Assembly: GCA_965287045.1 (NCBI GenBank)
Contig: OZ336870.1
Span: 156,178,001 to 156,242,000 of the forward strand
Direction of reading: 5' to 3'
DNA from: Carcharhinus amblyrhynchos
Taxonomy: Eukaryota
DNA length: 64,000 bases
A program made the translations under genes and the position numbers. Each line of letters opens with the position of its first letter. Positions within the stretch are counted from its first letter, which is position 1. Of the stretch, positions 4,260 to 62,118 are shown in pieces. The notes under the pieces are model-generated. The model had not been told where the DNA came from, searched no databases, and saw only the letters and a program-made list of their open reading frames with translations.

Positions 4260-5139
4260 GTACAGTAACATCAGCATTATGTTACATAGTTTTTCTAGAT
4301 AAGTCTGGTCTTCAAAAGAAATCAATTCCAAGACAAGATATCTAGTATTGTATGTTCCACTAATAAGTCAACTCATGGGACATAAACATGAGAATTTAAT
4401 AGCTTTCAAATGCAATAACTGCAACTACTGGAAAATATCAGGTTATAACAACTGCAATGAAGGCCTTTTGTTTGAACCATCACATGAATCCGTTGTGTGG
4501 TTTGTTTCTTAATGGGAACAGTTTGATAAAACCCAAGGGGAGAGTGCAGGAAATAGAAATCATAAAGAGAACAAACAGCTTGCTTACTTCATATTTAAAA
4601 GAAAGGTATTTCACCACTTCTGACAAAGGTTGGCATCAATTCTTTCAGTAAGTCGAATTGAATAGGTTAAATATGCATGATCAATTTTTTTGCACTTTGC
4701 TTATTGAGAGAAGATTAAATTGTTAATTTTTGTTTGAATTACGTTCTCATCAGATGTCTTGTTGCACAATGAGTAATGTTGCTGCCTTTGAGCCAGAGGT
4801 TCTGGATTCAAATCCCACCGAGTCCCATCCCTGCATCCCATTCCCCAGCCTTTAGAATCAGGCCCATTGACCCAGTCCCACCCTTTGGGCCTACTACCCC
4901 TACCTGGAAACCCCATATACTCATTTTTGATCTGGACGCTTTCGCTTTTGCTGGGACTGGGTGTAGTCCCAGCTGTGGCCACAACTCCCAGTGATGCTGC
5001 TGAGACAGGAGAACTGCCAACCTATCGGAGATAGGGTGAACATTTTGCCTCCAGTAGGGTAATGCTCCACAGTGTTAATGGGTGCGGGATGGCAGAGACC
5101 AAGTTTAACAGAGAAGCAAGCTCTGCCAACTTGTTCAGT

Positions 5140-5347
5140 AAAAAGTCCGACAACACCAGGTTTTAGTCCAACCAATTTATTTGATAGTAAACGCACAAGC
5201 TTTCGAGGTTTCCCTCTTCGTCAGGTGAACCTCGAAACCTCGAAAGCTTGTGTGTTTACTATCAAATAAATCGGTTGGACTAAAACCTGGTGTTGTCAGA
5301 CTTTTTACTGTGTTTACCCCAGTCCAACGCCGGCACATCCACATCAT
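5140..5347. mobile_element. Penelope-like inverted pseudo-LTR insert with minimal hammerhead core
   Basis: Inverted arms 5136-~5215 and ~5235-5310, 37-nt tail, 12-bp TSD aacttgttcagt (5128-5139 / 5348-5359). Confidence 0.8.
5193..5230 (-). ncRNA. Minimal type I hammerhead ribozyme motif
   Basis: Minus strand reads cac CUGACGA a GAGG-GAAA-CCUC GAAA GCUU gug; intact core, 4-bp stem II, palindromic AGCU stem III. Confidence 0.7.
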
Positions 5348-5437
5348 AACTTGTTCAGTGGCAGTGAGAAGCCCTGTCATCCAAAAAATCCTTCCTGAAT
5401 TCAGTCTTTTACCACGTGGCAACTGAGAATAGGCAAG

Positions 5438-5648
5438 TCTCACAACACCAGGTTAAAAGTCCAACAGGTTTATTTGGAATCACAAGCTTTCAGAGTGCTG
5501 CTCCTTCATTAGATGAGTTCTGGGCTCACTTGATGAAGGAGCAGCACTCTGATGGCTCGTGATTCCAAATAAACTTGTTGGACTTTAACCTGGTGTGGTG
5601 ACACTTCTTATTATGCCCACCCCAGTCCAACACCAGCATCTCCACATC
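5438..5648. mobile_element. Older Penelope-like palindromic insert (second subfamily), decayed hammerhead cores
   Basis: Inverted arms, tail ccccagtccaacaccagcatctccacatc, 13-bp TSD gagaataggcaag (5425-5437 / 5649-5661); cores mutated (TTGATGA, CTAATGA). Confidence 0.75.
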
Positions 5649-16036: not shown

Positions 16037-16042
16037 AGATAA

Positions 16043-16144
16043 ACACAGTAAGAAGTCTGACAACACCAGGTTTAAGTCCAACCGATTTATTTGATAGACT
16101 TCTTACTGTGTTTACCCCAGTCCAACACCGGCATCTCCACATCA
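16043..16144. mobile_element. Internally deleted Penelope-like palindromic insert
   Basis: cagtaagaagtc...gacttcttactg termini plus the family tail; TSD atgaagataa (16033-16042 / 16145-16154). Confidence 0.75.
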
Positions 16145-19269: not shown

Positions 19270-19359
19270 GGAACAGTAAGAAGTTTTAAGTCCAACCTGG
19301 TGCTGTAAGACTTCTTACTGTGTTTACCCCAGTCCAACACCGGCATCTCCACATCATGG
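19270..19359. mobile_element. Minimal (90 bp) Penelope-like insert
   Basis: acagtaagaagt...acttcttactgt plus the family tail; TSD ctagccagtg (19260-19269 / 19360-19369). Confidence 0.75.
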
Positions 19360-30195: not shown

Positions 30196-30549
30196 GAACA
30201 TTCTCCCCCTGTCCATCTCCATACCAACAGTGTCAACCCAGGTCCTTTTCTGCGGGTTCAACCAATCAAGATCGGGAGCCGCATATAATTTCTTAATGTC
30301 CAACCGTGATCTATTCAGTAAAGGTCATTGATTTGGGAGATGCTGTTGAAGATACCCTTGTTGAGTTGCAACAGTATCTTTTGCACAAATGCTGGATAAG
30401 TGGTTGTGTAAGGTGGATGTCAGATTAAGTAGGTAGAAGTATAGGCGTGTGTACTACATCTGCTTAGTTTGCTTCTGAAATGCACTGGTAATTTTTAATC
30501 TGTAAACTTCCTTGTGGACAATTTTACTAGTTGTTGACCTGTCTGTTTT

Positions 30550-30697
30550 CATGATGTGGAAGTGCCGGTGTTGGACTGGGATGGAACAGTTAGAAATCTT
30601 GCAACATCAACACTCCATCACTTGATGAAAGAGCAATGCTCCAGAAGCTCATGATTCTAATTAAACCTGTTGATCTTGTTGTGAGACCTCTTACTGG
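30550..30697 (-). mobile_element. Decayed Penelope-like palindromic insert
   Basis: Reverse tail catgatgtggaagtgccggtgttggactggg; degenerate hammerhead ttgatga.agagcaatgctcc.agaagctc. Confidence 0.65.
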
Positions 30698-55030: not shown

Positions 55031-58000
55031 ATAAGAACACAAGAAATAGGAGCAGGAGTAGGCCATCTAGCCCTTCAAGCCTGCCCCGCCATTCAATAAG
55101 ATCATGGCTGATCTGTCGTGGCTCAGTTCCACTTTCCCGCCCTCTCCCCATAACCCTTAATCCCCTTGCCTATCAAAAACCTATCTACCCGCGTCTTAAA
55201 TATATTTAGTGAGGCAGCCTCCACCACTTCAACAGGCAGAGAATTCCAGAGATTCACCACCCTTTGAGTGAAGAAGTTCCTCCTCAACTCCGTTCTAAAC
55301 TGCCCCCCCCACTTATCTTGAGGCTGTGCCCTCTAGTCCTACTGTCCTTTCTGAGCGGGAAGAGTCTCTCCACCTCTATCCTATCCATCCCATTCATCAT
55401 CTTATATGTCTCAATGAGATCTCCCCTCGTTCTTCTAAACTCTAACGAGTACAAGCCTAGTTTATTCAGCCTTTCCTCATAGTTCAACCCCCTCAACTCC
55501 GGTATCAGCCTAGTAAACCTCCTCTGCACTCCTCCAAGGCCAAAATATCCTTGCATAAGTGCGGCGACCAAAACTGCACACAGTACTCCAGCTGCGGCCT
55601 CACCAGTGCCCTGTACAGTTGCAGCAAGACCTCCGTACTTTTATATTTAATCCTCCTCGTTATGAAGGCCAGCATCCCATTCGCCTTCCTGACCACCTGC
55701 TACACCTGCAGGCTGGGTTTTTGCGACTCATGCACAAGGACCCCGAGGTCCCTCTGCACCGTTGCATGCTGCAGTTTTTCGCCATGTAAGTAATAGTCCT
55801 TCCTACCATTATTCCTACCAAAGTGGACAACTTCACACTTGCTAACATTAAATTCCATTTGCCAGTTCCTGGCCCATTCGCCCAGCCTATCTAGATCCTT
55901 CTGCAGACTTTCCACGCCCTCTGCACAATTTGCCGTTCCACCAATCTTGCTGTCATCAGCAAATTTCGACACCATACACTCGGTTCCCTCCTCCAGATCA
56001 TCTATATAAATGGTAAATAGCTGAGGCCCCAGCACCGATCCCTGGGGCACTCCACTAGTCACCAACCGCCAATCCGAATAGCACCCATTGACCCCCACTC
56101 TCTGCCTCCTATTTGACAGCCAATCCCCGATCCACGCTAACACCCTACCCCCAACTCCATGCCCCCTAACCTTCTGTAATAACCTCTTGTGCGGCACCTT
56201 ATCAAACGCCTTCTGAAAATCAAGAAACACCACATCTACTGGCTCTCCTCTATCCACCGCCCTAGACACATCCTCATAGAACTCCAATAAATTTGTCAGA
56301 CACGACTTCCCCTTAACGAAACCATGCTGCGTCTACTCTATCAAACAATTCTCCTCAAGATGCCTCTCTATTTTCTCCTTGATCACGAATTCTAGCATTT
56401 TACCTACAACAGACGTTAAACTAACCGGCCTATAATTCCCTGCCTTTTGCCTGCTACCCTTCTTAAACAACGGCGTAACATTAGCCGTTTTCCAATTTTC
56501 CGGCACTTCCCCGGAATCCAGCAATGTTTGGAAAATAATCAAGGCATCCACTATCACCTCCGCCATTTCTTTCAGAACCCTTGGATGCATTCCATCCGGT
56601 CCTGGGGACTTGTCCACAATCAGTCCCTCCAGTCTGTCGAGCACTGCCTCTCTAGTAACAATAATGTCATTCAGGCCCTCCACTCCTACCATCTTTCCAT
56701 CGCTAACACCTGGCAAACTATTCACGTCCTCCTCCATGAAGACCGAAACAAAAAAGTTATTCAAGGCCTCAGCCATTTCCCCATCCCCTACCACTAAGTC
56801 CCCCCTCTCATCCTCTAAGGGTCCAACGTTCACCCTAGTCAACCTCTTCCTTTTAAAAACTCTTACTATCCTTTTTTATATTTAGCTCTAGCCCAGCTTC
56901 ATAGTTTATCCTACCCTGCTTTATCAACTTCTTCGTCATTCTTTGTTGATATTTAAACCTCTCCCAATCCTCTTCTCGCCCACTACTCTTAGCTACTCTA
57001 AACGCATCCGCTTTTAATTTAATACTATCCTTTACCTCCTTCGTTATCCATGGCTGATTATCTCTCCTCCTACGATCCTTTTTAACCATCGGAATAAATT
57101 TCTGCTGAGCACCAAGAAAGCTCTCCTCAAAGATCCTCCACTGTTCCTCAGCAGACCTACCTTCCAATGTGCTCCCCCAATCAACATTCACCAATTCCTC
57201 TCTCATCCTATCGTACTCCCCTCTATTCAAACAAAGGACACAGGTCCGGGAACCCACTTTCTCCTCCTCCATCTGCATCAGAAATTCCACCATACAATGA
57301 TCACTCCTCCCAAGAGGATCCTTCACCACAAGGTCCCTAATTCTACCTGCCTCATTACATAACACCAGATCCAAGATAGCTCGCCCCCTCGTCGGCTCCA
57401 ACACACACTGTTCAAGGAAACTATCCCGGCAGCATTCCAAGAACTCTTCTTCAAGCCCACCGCGTCCAGCATGGGTCGACCAATCAATATGTAGATTGAA
57501 ATCCCCCATAATTATCGCCGTTCCGTTCCTGCACGCTGCATTTATTTGCGTGTTAATAGCCCGCCCCGCCTCCAGATCATTATTTGGGGGCCTATAGACG
57601 ACACCCACCAGCGTCTTCCTCCCTTTGCTGTTCCTAATCTCCACCCACAACGATTCCACTTTCTGCTTTTTGGCTCCTATATCATCCCTTACTACCACCC
57701 TGATGCTATCCTTAATCCTCCCGCCTATCCTTCCTAAACACTTGATAGCCCTGTACATTCAGCTCCCAGTCCCTGTCACCCTGCAGCCACGTCTCTGTAA
57801 TGGCCACCAGATCATATCCATTTGTGCTGATCTGCGCCACCAGCTCATTCACTTTATTCTGAATGCTTCGTGCATTCAGATAAAGTGCCTTCATCCCAGC
57901 CTTTACCTGTACCCTATTTGCAGGAACGCCACCAACCTTACTCACGCCCCCTACTCCCTTTATTATTGGGACATCCTTGGCCTCTTCCCGTACCTGTACC

Positions 58001-59140
58001 CTCTCCTTTACTTTAGACCCTGTAATTTCACCTACCCTCGCACCCTCCCCTCCCTAATTAGTTTAAAGCCCTATCTACAGTCCTATCTACACGATTTGCC
58101 AGGACTCTGGTCCCAGCACGGTTCAGACCAACCCCATCCCACCTGAACAGGTCCCACCTACCCCAATACTGGTGCCAATGTCCCATAAATTCAAACCCAT
58201 TCCTCCCACACCAATCCCTGAGCCACCCATTCACTTCCTTAATCTTATCAACCCTATGCCCATCTGCATACGGTTCAGGCAGTAGTCCAGAGATAACCAC
58301 CTTGTCGGTTCTACTTTTTAATTCCATTCCCAGCTTTTCATACTCCCTCCCCAGATCCTCAGTTCACATTTTGCCTATGTCGTTGGCACCCACATGTACT
58401 ACAACGACCGGATTCTCACCCTCCCACTCCAGGTTCCTCTGCAGCCCAGATGCGACATCCTGGACCCGAGCACCAGGCAGACAACACACCCTTCTGTGCT
58501 CTTTGTCATTGTGACAAAGGACAGTGTCAATACCCTTAACCACACTAGCCCCAATTACCACTACATTCCTTTTCACCTTCTCTTTGTCTATGTCCTGTGT
58601 CTGCATCACTGTACCGTGTGCAGTTTGCTCACCAACCTCACCGCCCTCGTTCTCGTCCACACTGGAAGCAAGAACCTCAAACCTGTTATGCAGATTGAGA
58701 GGCTGAGGCATTTGGTCCCCACCCTCCTTCCTCCGGTCTCCACCCTCCTTCCTCCAGTCCCCACCCTCCTTCCTCCGGTCCCCACCCTCCTTCCTCTGGT
58801 CCCCACCCTCCTCCCTCCGGTCCCCACCCTCCTTCCTCCTCTCAGCAGCCCCCTCCTGTTCCTGACCCTTAGAGTTAGCCAGTCTAGGGGGTGTGGATGT
58901 TTCTTACACCCCATTATCAATGGCACCCTCCCTCCCCCTGATGAGCCTCAGTGTCTGTAGCTCAGAGGCCAGCTCATCTACTTTGAGCTGTAGCTCCTCC
59001 AGCAACCTGCACTTACTGCAGACGTGGTCACTGGGAAGGACCCTGGGGTCCACCAGCTCCCGCATCATACAGAAACAGCACATCACATGCCCCTCCATTA
59101 TTCCCTTTAGTACTACTTAAGTACTTTAGTACTATTTAAG
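55028..59140 (-). mobile_element. Near full-length CR1 LINE: ORF1 (zinc finger/leucine zipper + SGNH esterase) and ORF2 (APE + RT) with a few frameshifts
   Basis: ORF1 C..C...HVCSKC.LLEELQLKVDEL, NVVVIGASVVKG, VCCLPGARVQDV, VVVVHVGANDIG; ORF2 YLNARSI.NK, VAITETWL, MGDFN, SDH, KFADDSK; (ttcttatg)-type tail. Confidence 0.96.
58714..58839. repeat. 21-bp minisatellite x6 inside CR1 ORF1
   Basis: Unit ggtccccaccctccttcctcc, six near-perfect copies. Confidence 0.95.
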
Positions 59141-60024
59141 ACTTTAAATCTGATCAATGGGTGGGATTTTGTGCTGCCGCTTGCAATAGGTGGCAATGGG
59201 GCTGGGGGGAGCTGAGAAAAGAGGATTTACATTGGTGAGATTTCCCACAGCAAATGTCCCTAGCCCCTCCATTGGCGTGATTTGGTTCCTGCTGACAAAG
59301 GTGGGGGAAATGTGTTTGAATTCATTACTAAATCATTAGTGAGCCATCCTGCAGTAACCTCTCCTGAGGCACAACAACCTGCCCCGGTATTGCGCCACCA
59401 AGCCAGAGGGTTCTACAACAGCTTTTCAAAAGTGGGAACCTGGAAACCTCGGCCTCGATTCTCCCAAAAGAGCTGAATTGGCGGGAAAACTGTTCTAAAT
59501 CCCGACTATTTTATCAGTTCAACTTCTCACCCTAATCTCCCCACTCTGTACACTGCAGAGGTCCCAATTATGAGTCTCATTAAAATCCCGGGGAGGCAGG
59601 GCCTATCTGCACCCAATCTGACAGTTCTGGAACTCTGCGCATGCGCAATAGCCCTGATCTGTCAGATTCCCTGTTTGCTGGCTAGCTCAATCGCTAGCTA
59701 GGGTGAGACCCCCAGAGTGCTGCCCCTCCAACCACCCCCCATGGCCCAATCGTGCCCCACAACAGTTCCCAGGCCAACCTTGACCCCCTGTCCCAGAGTA
59801 CCCCAATGTCCAGTCCAGCCCCCCAGCAGTGGCAATCCCTCCCACCCCCCCCCCCCAGATTGCCCCAATTGCTGCGCCCCCTCCATCCCAATACAGAGTG
59901 GCAGCAGAAGCCCCCACCCCCACCAATCATCCCTAGGCCCTGCCTACAATAGGCCCTGCTCCCTTGGCACTGTAAAAAGTCTGACAACACCAGGTTTAAG
60001 TCCAACCGATTTATTTGATAGTAA

Positions 60025-60064
60025 ACTCACAAGCTTTCAGGGTTTGTCCCTTCATCAGGTGAAT
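60025..60064 (-). ncRNA. Minimal type I hammerhead ribozyme motif
   Basis: auucac CUGAUGA AGGG-ACAAA-CCCU GAAA GCUU gugagu; 6-bp stem I. Confidence 0.72.
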
Positions 60065-60120
60065 GGAGAGTTCTGGCCTCGGACAGAGCATATAACAAAG
60101 TTCTGAGGCCAAAACTCTCC

Positions 60121-60160
60121 ATTCACCTGACGAAGGGACAAACCCCGAAAGCTTATGAGT
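60121..60160 (+). ncRNA. Minimal type I hammerhead ribozyme motif (sense to the host pre-mRNA)
   Basis: auucac CUGACGA a GGG-acaaac-CCC GAAA GCUU augagu; one mismatch at the base of stem I. Confidence 0.65.
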
Positions 60161-60517
60161 TTACTATCAAATAAATCAGTTGGACTTAAACCTGGTGTTG
60201 TCAGACTTTTTACTGTGTTCATCCCAGTCCAACACCGGCATATCCACATCATGACCCCTTGGCACTGCCCAATGCCCCATGATCAGTGCCAAGGTGTCCC
60301 CTGGGCATGGACTGTGTCCCTTGGGCAGTGCCAGGGGGCACAGGCTGGCACTGCCAGGGTGCCCATACCCAGGGGGCACAACCCCTGCCGCCCAATCCCC
60401 TGGGGGGCCCCGATTGCCCCCCCTTCATTCCAGCAGGGTCCCCCACTAATTCCCCAAATGTGGGGAGCTATCTAAACCCCGCCGAAGTGAAGTACTTCTG
60501 GCAGGGTGGGAGGTTCA

Positions 60518-62118
60518 ATCAGGAATCTCCAGGTATCTAGATGGATTGATAACTGGCTTGGTAAGAGGAGACAGAGAGCAGTAGTGGAAGGGTCCTTTTC
60601 TAGCTGGAGATCTGTCACTAGTGGTGTGCCGCAGGGCTCAGTACTGGGACCCCTTCTATTTGTAATATACATAAATGACTTGGAAGAGGGAGTAAGTGGT
60701 GTGATCAGCAAATTTGCAGATGACACTAAGATGGCTGGATTGGCGGACAGTGAGGAGCAGTGTCAGGCAATACAATGGGATATAGATAGGCTGGTATATT
60801 GGGCAGATAAATTGCAAATGGAATTTAATCCTGATAAATGTGAGGTGATGCATTTTGGCAGAAATAATGTAGGGGGTGTTATATGATAGAGCGTAGACCG
60901 ATAAAGAATATAGAAATGCAGAGGGACCTGGGGGTGCAAGTGCACAAGTCTTTGAAGGTGGCAGTACAAGTGGAGAAGGTTGTGAAGAAAGCTTATGGTA
61001 TGTTAGCCTTTATAGGAAGGGTTATAGAGTATAAGATCTGGAGTCTAATGTTGCAGTTGTATAGAACATTGGTTAGGCCGCATTTGGAGTACTGCATCCA
61101 GTTATGGTCACCTTACTACAGAAAGATGTGGAGACCCTGGAGAGAGTGCAAAGGAGGTTTACCAGGATGCTGCCTGGTATGGAAGCACTGGGTTATGAGG
61201 AAAGATTGAGCAAATTGGGGCTGTTTTCCCTTGAAAGACGGTGACTGAGGGGAGATCTAATAGAGGTATATAAGATTATGAAGGGTATAGATAAACAGTG
61301 GTAAGCTTTTTCCTAGGTTGGAAACGCACATTACAAGGGGCCACGGGCTTAGGGTGAGGGGGGCGAGGTATAATTCGGATGTTAGAGAGAGGTTTTTCAC
61401 ACAGAGGGTAGTGGGGGTATGGAATGCTCTGCCAAGCAAGGTGGTGGAGGCAGGCACTCTGGAGTTGTTTAAGAGTTACTTAGATAGGCACATAAGCGGG
61501 ATGGAGATGGAGGGATATAGGAGAATGTTTTAAATAAGGTTCAGGAGCCTTGGATTCCTATGGACCTTCCAACATATTTTCTGGCTCACTTGTTTCACTT
61601 GGGGATTCCCTTGAATGTGTGTATAAGGATGTGGATGATACTGATGTTTTTCTCTTTTAATACACAGGTGCTTTGGTCCGCCTTGTTGTCCAACAAGGGG
61701 CATTCACACGATGGGTCGTACAAGGGCTGCTCTTGGTTGTTTCGAGAATAGCCTAGTACTTCACGTCGTTAGTGTATGCTTAAACTGGACTAGATGCAGG
61801 GCAACACAACAGCTCAGTGACTATCACTGTTTGCTGTGCAGATACATGGATTTGGGCCAGTGTCTGCGGGAATTTGCGCATTCTCCCCACGCTTGCGTGG
61901 GTTTTCTCCAGGTGCTCCGGTTTCCTCCCACACCCCAAAGATGTGCTATTAGGCTGATTGGTGTAACAAATTGTCCCTAAATTAGTCTTCCCTCAATGTG
62001 GAATGCCATAAGCATAGACAAGGGTCATGGGTGGAGGGGAGACTCATAATGTTAAAATGGCAGCGCGGGCTCATTGGGCCGAAGGGCCTGTTTCCCGGGC
62101 TGTTTTGTTCTTTGTTCT
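60518..62118 (+). mobile_element. 5'-truncated CR1 with long 3' region containing a V-SINE-like segment (~61799-62000)
   Basis: SGVPQGSVLGP, KFADDTK, LVRPHLEYC; CR1-type tail gggccgaagggcctgtttcc...tgttctttgttc ends at ~62118. Confidence 0.8.

Follow-up and report, generated by a model that had tools for sequence, protein, structure and literature searches.

Insertions in which two pLTRs stand inverted with a tail on one side, as well as hammerhead motifs that face each other, are already published features of Penelope-like elements (PLEs), as the available text of PMC8557442, PMC3846280 and PMC4209133 makes plain. In the EN+ Neptune PLEs, as described in PMC8557442, a single ORF joins a reverse transcriptase (RT) to a C-terminal GIY-YIG endonuclease, with a DKG motif and a CX2-5CxxC linker, and is accompanied by pLTRs in partial tandem, an inverted 5′-truncated copy, a one-sided tail of 30-40 bp and a pLTR hammerhead; the parent of the shark insert analysed here is built in the same way. 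Where it deals with targets, that source ties Neptune-type linkers to microsatellites, whereas the shark element targets TG-N16-CA with a modal target-site duplication (TSD) of 12 bp. The rotifer Penelope elements of PMC3846280 resemble the shark copies in their head-to-head pLTRs, in a tail that extends into the ORF's beginning and in palindromes at the junction; they likewise have TSDs, which are 8-10 bp long. The passages on their formation infer self-priming on an antisense template, whereas the shark counts favour priming from both ends of the target.

The protein of the anole Poseidon element PAc cleaves and extends both strands and is a predicted dimer (PMC11167929). Two adjacent RT start sites define its tail, which matches the two starts of the shark element; PAc belongs to a different clade, however, and prefers ATT where the shark element prefers TG-N16-CA, and its ORF starts inside the hammerhead whereas the ATG of the shark parent lies at the end of the tail. 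Inverted insertions and TSDs are not discussed in the main text of that study, and its three text supplements likewise contain no mention of inverted, TSD, duplication or tail.

As for the ribozyme, the minimal PLE hammerheads of PMC4209133 are type I motifs with an extra base before stem II, a G10.1-C11.1 pair and a palindromic 15.2/16.2, as in the shark; pairs of motifs on opposite strands, 100-700 bp from each other, were ascribed there to truncated PLEs, and opposed minimal hammerheads of this origin had low activity in vitro. The results and discussion of that paper name no sharks, and the shark motif is a predicted hammerhead. Non-LTR retrozymes, according to the consulted part of bioRxiv 10.64898/2026.07.22.740005, have a PLE-derived type I hammerhead, are reported in one chondrichthyan and are non-coding, as is the 283-bp shark stub. 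They are tandem repeats with one ribozyme per unit, whereas the shark insert is one inverted stub with no sign of replication: neither tandem units nor propagation as a discrete non-coding unit was found for it.

The insert and its protein-coding parent

The preliminary description of the window, that is, the whole 64-kb stretch of Carcharhinus amblyrhynchos DNA that was analysed, had singled out a 283-bp insert with a 12-bp TSD, inverted arms of about 112 bp, a one-sided tail of some 40 nt and two opposed minimal hammerheads. This anatomy was confirmed throughout (Table 1), the insert occupying 59973-60255. The inverted arms align over 116 nt at 94%, or over 111 nt with 6 differences once the overlap with the TSD is removed, and 4 of these 6 fall at CpG. 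In a comparison of empty sites, for which 14 paralogues of the host repeat were inspected, the 12-mer CCCTTGGCACTG was single, with the left flank continuing (for example in L264, L270, L272, L275 and L276), and the 12-bp direct repeat is therefore a true TSD. The host repeat itself (window about 59700-60480) had 2,571 first-look candidates, the best paralogues being 84-89% identical. Another repeated fragment, at window 60531-61521, has several copies in the window and resembles what we take to be the RT region of a CR1-type LINE.

Table 1. Features of the insert and its flanks, in window coordinates; pLTR positions are relative to the ATG of the parent ORF
Feature	Position	Strand	Detail
TG half of symmetric target motif	59957..59958	+	4 nt left of TSD
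Left target-site duplication	59961-59972	+	12 bp, CCCTTGGCACTG
Antisense arm	59973..60095	-	parent pLTR -39 to -161
Minus hammerhead motif, minimal type I	60025..60064	-	6-bp stem I; G10.1-U11.1 wobble; predicted cleavage at 60031/60030
Head-to-head junction insert	60096..60101	.	6 nt; centre found once in genome
Sense arm	60102..60255	+	parent pLTR -149 to +4, tail included
Plus hammerhead motif, minimal type I	60121..60160	+	C2.1-A1.1 mismatch; predicted cleavage at 60154/60155
One-sided tail	60213..60255	+	43 nt; its last 5 nt are the start of the parent ORF
Right target-site duplication	60256-60267	+	12 bp, CCCTTGGCACTG, identical to left copy
CA half of symmetric target motif	60270..60271	+	+3/+4 after TSD

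The genome (2.92 Gb) was searched, giving 3,895 candidates of which the best 40 were scored, and the parent was reached by walking inward from the arms and outward past the tail across copies. Elements such as L108, L104 and L120 are laid out as pLTR-ORF-pLTR, the unit measuring about 3,025 bp, while L102 is a tandem with a unit of ~3,026 bp. The ORF of 893 codons was found without an internal stop in 7 natural copies at 6 loci, drawn from 20 stretches that had been fetched around matches to the ORF start. The 3′ end of the tail in the window corresponds to the first 5 nt of this ORF (ATG at 60251-60253). The Penelope origin proposed earlier, with inverted pLTRs and a tail, was thus upheld, and so was the suggestion to look for a full RT-GIY-YIG parent with the same termini, since intact parents exist in the same genome and the insert is their pLTR.

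The 893-aa protein matches RVT_1 (E=1.4e-9). A match to GIY-YIG was obtained on L033 at E=2.5e-4, just short of the Pfam curated cut-off, and none was reported by Pfam for the three full-length parent proteins searched; homologues carry PF00078 and some of them PF01541. A DKG, a C-X4-C-X2-C linker and endonuclease motifs of CCHH type are visible in P0001 when it is compared by eye with the description in PMC8557442. With its RT and GIY-YIG ORF, pLTR repeats, inverted tailed copies, DKG and CCHH, the parent is, on these sequence features, to be placed among the EN+ PLEs. Its clade is probably Neptune, because the linker excludes Penelope and Poseidon and because only Neptune and Poseidon are reported in vertebrates (bioRxiv 10.64898/2026.07.22.740005, in the part consulted). 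The CX2-5CxxC linker upstream of GIY-YIG, present in the parent as CX4CxxC, is a Neptune feature that also occurs in Nematis, and the bias towards microsatellites, which is a reported tendency of Neptune rather than a strict criterion, was absent at the 48 test sites described below, which are of mixed sequence. Among named proteins, those of Mustelus (91%), Scyliorhinus (85%) and Heptranchias (84%) come closest, in agreement with the shark host assumed at the outset. One Heptranchias protein named as an epn2 isoform (P0067) contains a stretch 86% identical to the parent ORF, possibly an exonised or mis-annotated insertion. Contigs from four runs of other organisms, whose RNA nature is a guess and which show neither ends nor levels, cover 30 of 30 bins of the parent.

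The earlier claim of recent activity holds for the family, the intact ORFs being 98.3-99.2% identical between loci; it does not hold for the 283-bp copy, which is not among the youngest, its arms differing at 6 of 111 sites whereas the inverted arms of L108 differ by 0.2%. The latter (L108, 1-1582) is a full-length copy whose inverted partner matches it at 99.8% along the visible 586 bp, and is a very young insertion. At L069 (4314-9801), a 2.5-kb copy with an open frame of 645 codons lies inside a tandem array of ~70 bp.

The hammerhead palindrome is thus the pLTR stub of an abundant protein-coding PLE and not a protein-free ribozyme family. Read against the parent, the 283-bp insert would almost certainly be a single head-to-head insertion of the 3′ end of this autonomous element, 5′-truncated on both sides.

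Inner junctions, copy number and the hammerhead motif

The hypothesis that the palindrome belongs to a protein-less, retrozyme-like RNA family, transcribed, self-cleaving and retrotransposed as a unit, was the one favoured by the preliminary description. It would explain why the hammerhead is conserved, with a compensatory pair in stem II, why the best 40 of the 3,895 genome candidates span nearly all of the 283 bp, and why some centres recur at many loci; it also has a precedent in the argument, made in the consulted part of bioRxiv 10.64898/2026.07.22.740005, that non-LTR retrozymes derive from PLEs. The copies themselves speak against it. Among the fetched loci, 65 head-to-head copies were parsed, spanning 60-3,918 bp in a continuum of lengths, and their inner junctions differ from copy to copy, with 62 distinct inner-end pairs in the 63 copies whose junctions could be resolved. 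The centre of the 283-bp copy matches nothing but itself in the 2.92-Gb genome when up to 2 mismatches are allowed. Differing inner ends, a unique centre and this range of lengths together mean that there is no master palindrome, and the palindrome as a replicating unit was accordingly abandoned.

The centres that do recur sit on self-complementary words, in three different subfamily backgrounds. AAGCTT is at the centre in 31 of 50 listed loci, out of 76 with a junction beside that word, and ATAT/AATATT centres, found among 175 loci, are predominant only in the subfamily that possesses this word. Junctions centred on stem II (102 loci) are as common as those beside AAGCTT. Only L189 and L192 (near 0.53 Mb and 1.23 Mb of G000:C1) are identical insertions; their flanks agree at 99.9%, and the pair is a segmental duplication or an assembly duplicate. 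Retrozymes, moreover, are tandem repeats where the insert is a single inverted unit. With a parent that encodes RT and GIY-YIG, a protein-less family is very improbable. Overall the 63 resolvable junctions comprise 19 overlaps, 2 blunt joints and 42 with inserted bases.

In a 664-kb sample, made up of the window and 60 stretches chosen regardless of content, the family forms 37 clusters and 1.8% of the bases, and a 19-mer covering half of the hammerhead motif has at least 25,343 exact matches in the genome. Five further short copies or older relatives lie in the window itself, at 5136-5350, 5435-5648, 16040-16144, about 19277-19358 and 30549-30680; their centres differ, and a TSD is visible by eye in most.

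The motifs of the insert have the features of a minimal type I hammerhead with a palindromic AGCU, as had been noted from the outset. The descriptor CTGAYGA..GAAAGCT matches once per arm, at 60127-60153 (+) and 60032-60058 (-), and 3 times in the 64-kb window, where 0.02 matches are expected. The minus motif has a full stem I, but its G10.1 stands opposite U through CpG decay; the C-A mismatch of the plus motif is at the stem I pair adjoining the cut site. A scan of 58000-62000 against Rfam at E<=10 returned no hammerhead family, just generic hairpin matches, and in minimum free energy (MFE) folds of the isolated motif, as monomer and as dimer, stems I and II form and the active dimer does not. 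Among 86 distinct motifs, which were chosen by their core (CUGANGA / GAAA / UH), so that conservation of the core is circular, and which are related and may represent few events, 90.7% of stem cells are paired. The covariation that had been proposed as a check is found for stem II, where 52 of the 86 have GC at pair 2 and 21 have AU, a compensatory change, and not for stem I, in which none of these motifs has a double-sided change. The pattern supports selection on the hammerhead fold in the source elements. At L012 (G000:C10:48334363-48334639) both arms have an A at hammerhead position G12, either because a source with a dead ribozyme was still transposed or through two CpG decays.

Cleavage by the ribozyme as the step that sets the point of truncation was considered and rejected. 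Junctions do not accumulate at the predicted cut, none of the 50 listed loci being blunt there on both arms, and 76 loci have a junction within 8 nt of the cut as against 175 at a control 10 nt downstream, although the patterns at cut and control are not exactly comparable; the idea is unsupported, and the centres track self-complementary words. The suggestion that the sense ribozyme is sequestered by the antisense arm survives in part: folding of the full insert predicts a hairpin (MFE -199.2 kcal/mol, z = -25) in which the arms would pair, but this is a by-product of the geometry of insertion. The two hammerheads would then be passengers that go back to a single pLTR ribozyme, copied twice; selection would act on it in the parent element, and in stubs such as the 283-bp insert it would decay neutrally. 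In the anole element the ribozyme cleaves only with protein and is dispensable for insertion (PMC11167929).

The target site

The hypothesis of a symmetric target was fixed after a TG had been noticed at position -4 of the TSD, and was then put to new loci with a TSD caller blind to the motif; this test set comprised 53 parsed copies, 48 of them with a TSD. TG was found at -4 in 35 of the 48 test sites, against a background of 0.075 per position, and the complete TG-N16-CA frames 25 of 49 discovery sites and 32 of 48 test sites. Altogether TG-N2-[12 bp TSD]-N2-CA frames 57 of 97 sites, whereas 11 of 1,932 control windows have it, and the insert at 59961-60267 conforms to it at its own site. 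Both halves of the motif are present in 25 of the 34 sites with a strict 12-bp TSD, and neighbouring positions mirror each other. A TSD was called in 97 of 115 parsed copies, with a mode of 12 bp and a length of 12-13 bp in 66; longer ones are probably 12 bp plus a chance overlap with the element. Independent insertions of different lengths, L037 and L198 (with L254 and L262 similar), occupy the same site of another repeat, and this shared site carries a perfect CTGGC-N12-GCCAG.

Symmetric target motifs are typical of dimeric transposases. This symmetry, together with the long inverted arms and the narrow range of called TSDs, could be explained by a MITE or a DNA transposon of the foldback type, whose terminal inverted repeats are long and whose TSD is fixed, and DNA-transposon termini had been named from the start as the alternative to be tested. 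The ends of the copies are ragged, however, the tail is on one side, sizes vary over the whole range given above, and the arms run inward into the RT-GIY-YIG ORF; by this continuity with an RT-endonuclease parent, as read from the sequence, the transposon is refuted.

In the open-access literature that was searched, neither a symmetric target motif with evidence of twin priming for PLEs nor a retrotransposon whose endonuclease has a bipartite palindromic site and staggers its cuts by 12 nt was found, and the consulted portions of PMC12602865 and PMC9977147 contain nothing on a TG-N16-CA target motif. The structure of the insert is that of a textbook PLE insertion, and the symmetric target motif and the evidence for twin priming go beyond it.

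Formation of the two arms

The relation between the arms was followed through their variants. In 47 copies the arms differ by 3.7% within a copy as against 9.4% across copies; minority alleles are mirrored 164 times as against 40 (maximum 62) in 2,000 shuffles; and at most 1 of 10 diagnostic columns differs between the arms in 57 of 63 copies, compared with 12% of cross-copy pairs. To judge from these shared variants, both arms nearly always stem from one source template, and gene conversion between arms could contribute to the mirroring. That asymmetric copies come from two RNAs found no support, since mixed-template cases are no commoner among them than among symmetric copies (p=0.84).

The outer ends are ragged yet fixed: relative to the ATG, the start of the tail-less arm lies at -33 to -42 and that of the tailed arm mostly at -3 to +4, and these two different start positions give the one-sided tail. 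Strong microhomology at the outer junctions was not borne out, the overlap being mostly 0-2 nt. The inner ends may differ by hundreds of bases (-881/-108, -645/-1908). The longer arm is the left in 22 copies, the right in 5, and in 12 the two agree within 20 nt (n=39; null mean 2.3 near-equal), the corresponding counts in a second set being 1, 5 and 11 (n=17). By eye, 15 junctions centred on stem II kept the sense loop in 7 cases and the antisense loop in 6, and were symmetric in 2.

If the same PLE were inverted by self-priming or fold-back, priming would take place on one strand and the first arm would serve as template for the second, as the consulted part of PMC3846280 proposes for rotifer PLEs, where self-priming takes place on an antisense template. 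Such a route accounts for the variants common to both arms and for the excess of near-symmetric arms, and fits the 102 loci centred on the stem II hairpin. A single fold-back event fixes which arm is longer, yet both directions occur, and often the arms are unequal by hundreds of bases; junction hot spots are perfect palindromes with no loop; and the two-fold symmetry of the target motif is left without a reason. Fold-back is for these reasons unlikely.

Twin priming is favoured by the symmetric target, the shared source variants and the fact that either arm may be the longer, and is quite probably a better account than self-priming: the two strands would be cut in a staggered manner, and both 3′ ends would prime on a single template. 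By the geometry of TPRT, a motif of two-fold symmetry on either side of the TSD implies nicks in both strands, 12 nt apart and leaving 3′ overhangs. The element protein, probably as a dimer, would make these two nicks, and both 3′-OH groups would then prime cDNA synthesis on a single element RNA, one from the start site at the end of the tail and the other from that about 37 nt upstream, in keeping with the two starts and the extension of both strands by the anole protein (PMC11167929). Both antisense cDNAs would terminate prematurely, in many cases at nearly the same place on the template, and short self-complementary words or small inserts would link their 3′ ends to each other. A dimer prediction for the endonuclease part (residues 740-893), made from a single sequence with no alignment, scored 0.01 and speaks neither for nor against a dimer.

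Several observations weigh against twin priming or fail to single it out. The excess of near-symmetric arms (12 of 39) is also expected from fold-back, and junctions centred on stem II fit fold-back or the annealing of two strands alike; 42 of the 63 junctions have inserted bases rather than clean microhomology; 40 of 97 sites lack a perfect TG-N16-CA, and 18 of 115 copies have no called TSD; and in the anole the start site of the protein is the same on both strands and its preferred cut is AT-rich (PMC11167929). With these points counted, the combined reading, a truncated head-to-head PLE insertion made by priming from both strands of a staggered cut, is given a probability of about 0.8.

The proposed route resembles the twin priming of L1, in which a single RNA is primed by two 3′ ends of the target and microhomology joins the resulting inversion. 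The second primer of L1 lands at a variable internal site, whereas in the shark element both starts are fixed near the 3′ end, and for this reason the shark arms are mirror copies.

As a locus the 283-bp insert is ordinary, and its value is as a record of the mechanism of insertion. The consulted text of PMC8557442 calls the origin of the tandem and inverted structures of PLEs and of their tails undefined. A family with intact ORFs, a defined symmetric target and fixed starts makes twin priming versus self-priming testable by the assay of PMC11167929. The element may then integrate as a cross between a dimeric site-specific nuclease and a retrotransposon would, a proposal to which we give somewhat better than even odds, in which a two-fold symmetric site of about CTG(G)(C)-N12-(G)(C)CAG is recognised and undergoes a 12-nt double cut, and two reverse transcriptions are primed on one RNA from two fixed starts. 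If true, this mechanism would explain why Penelope-like insertions generally have head-to-head repeats, a tail on one side and a TSD.
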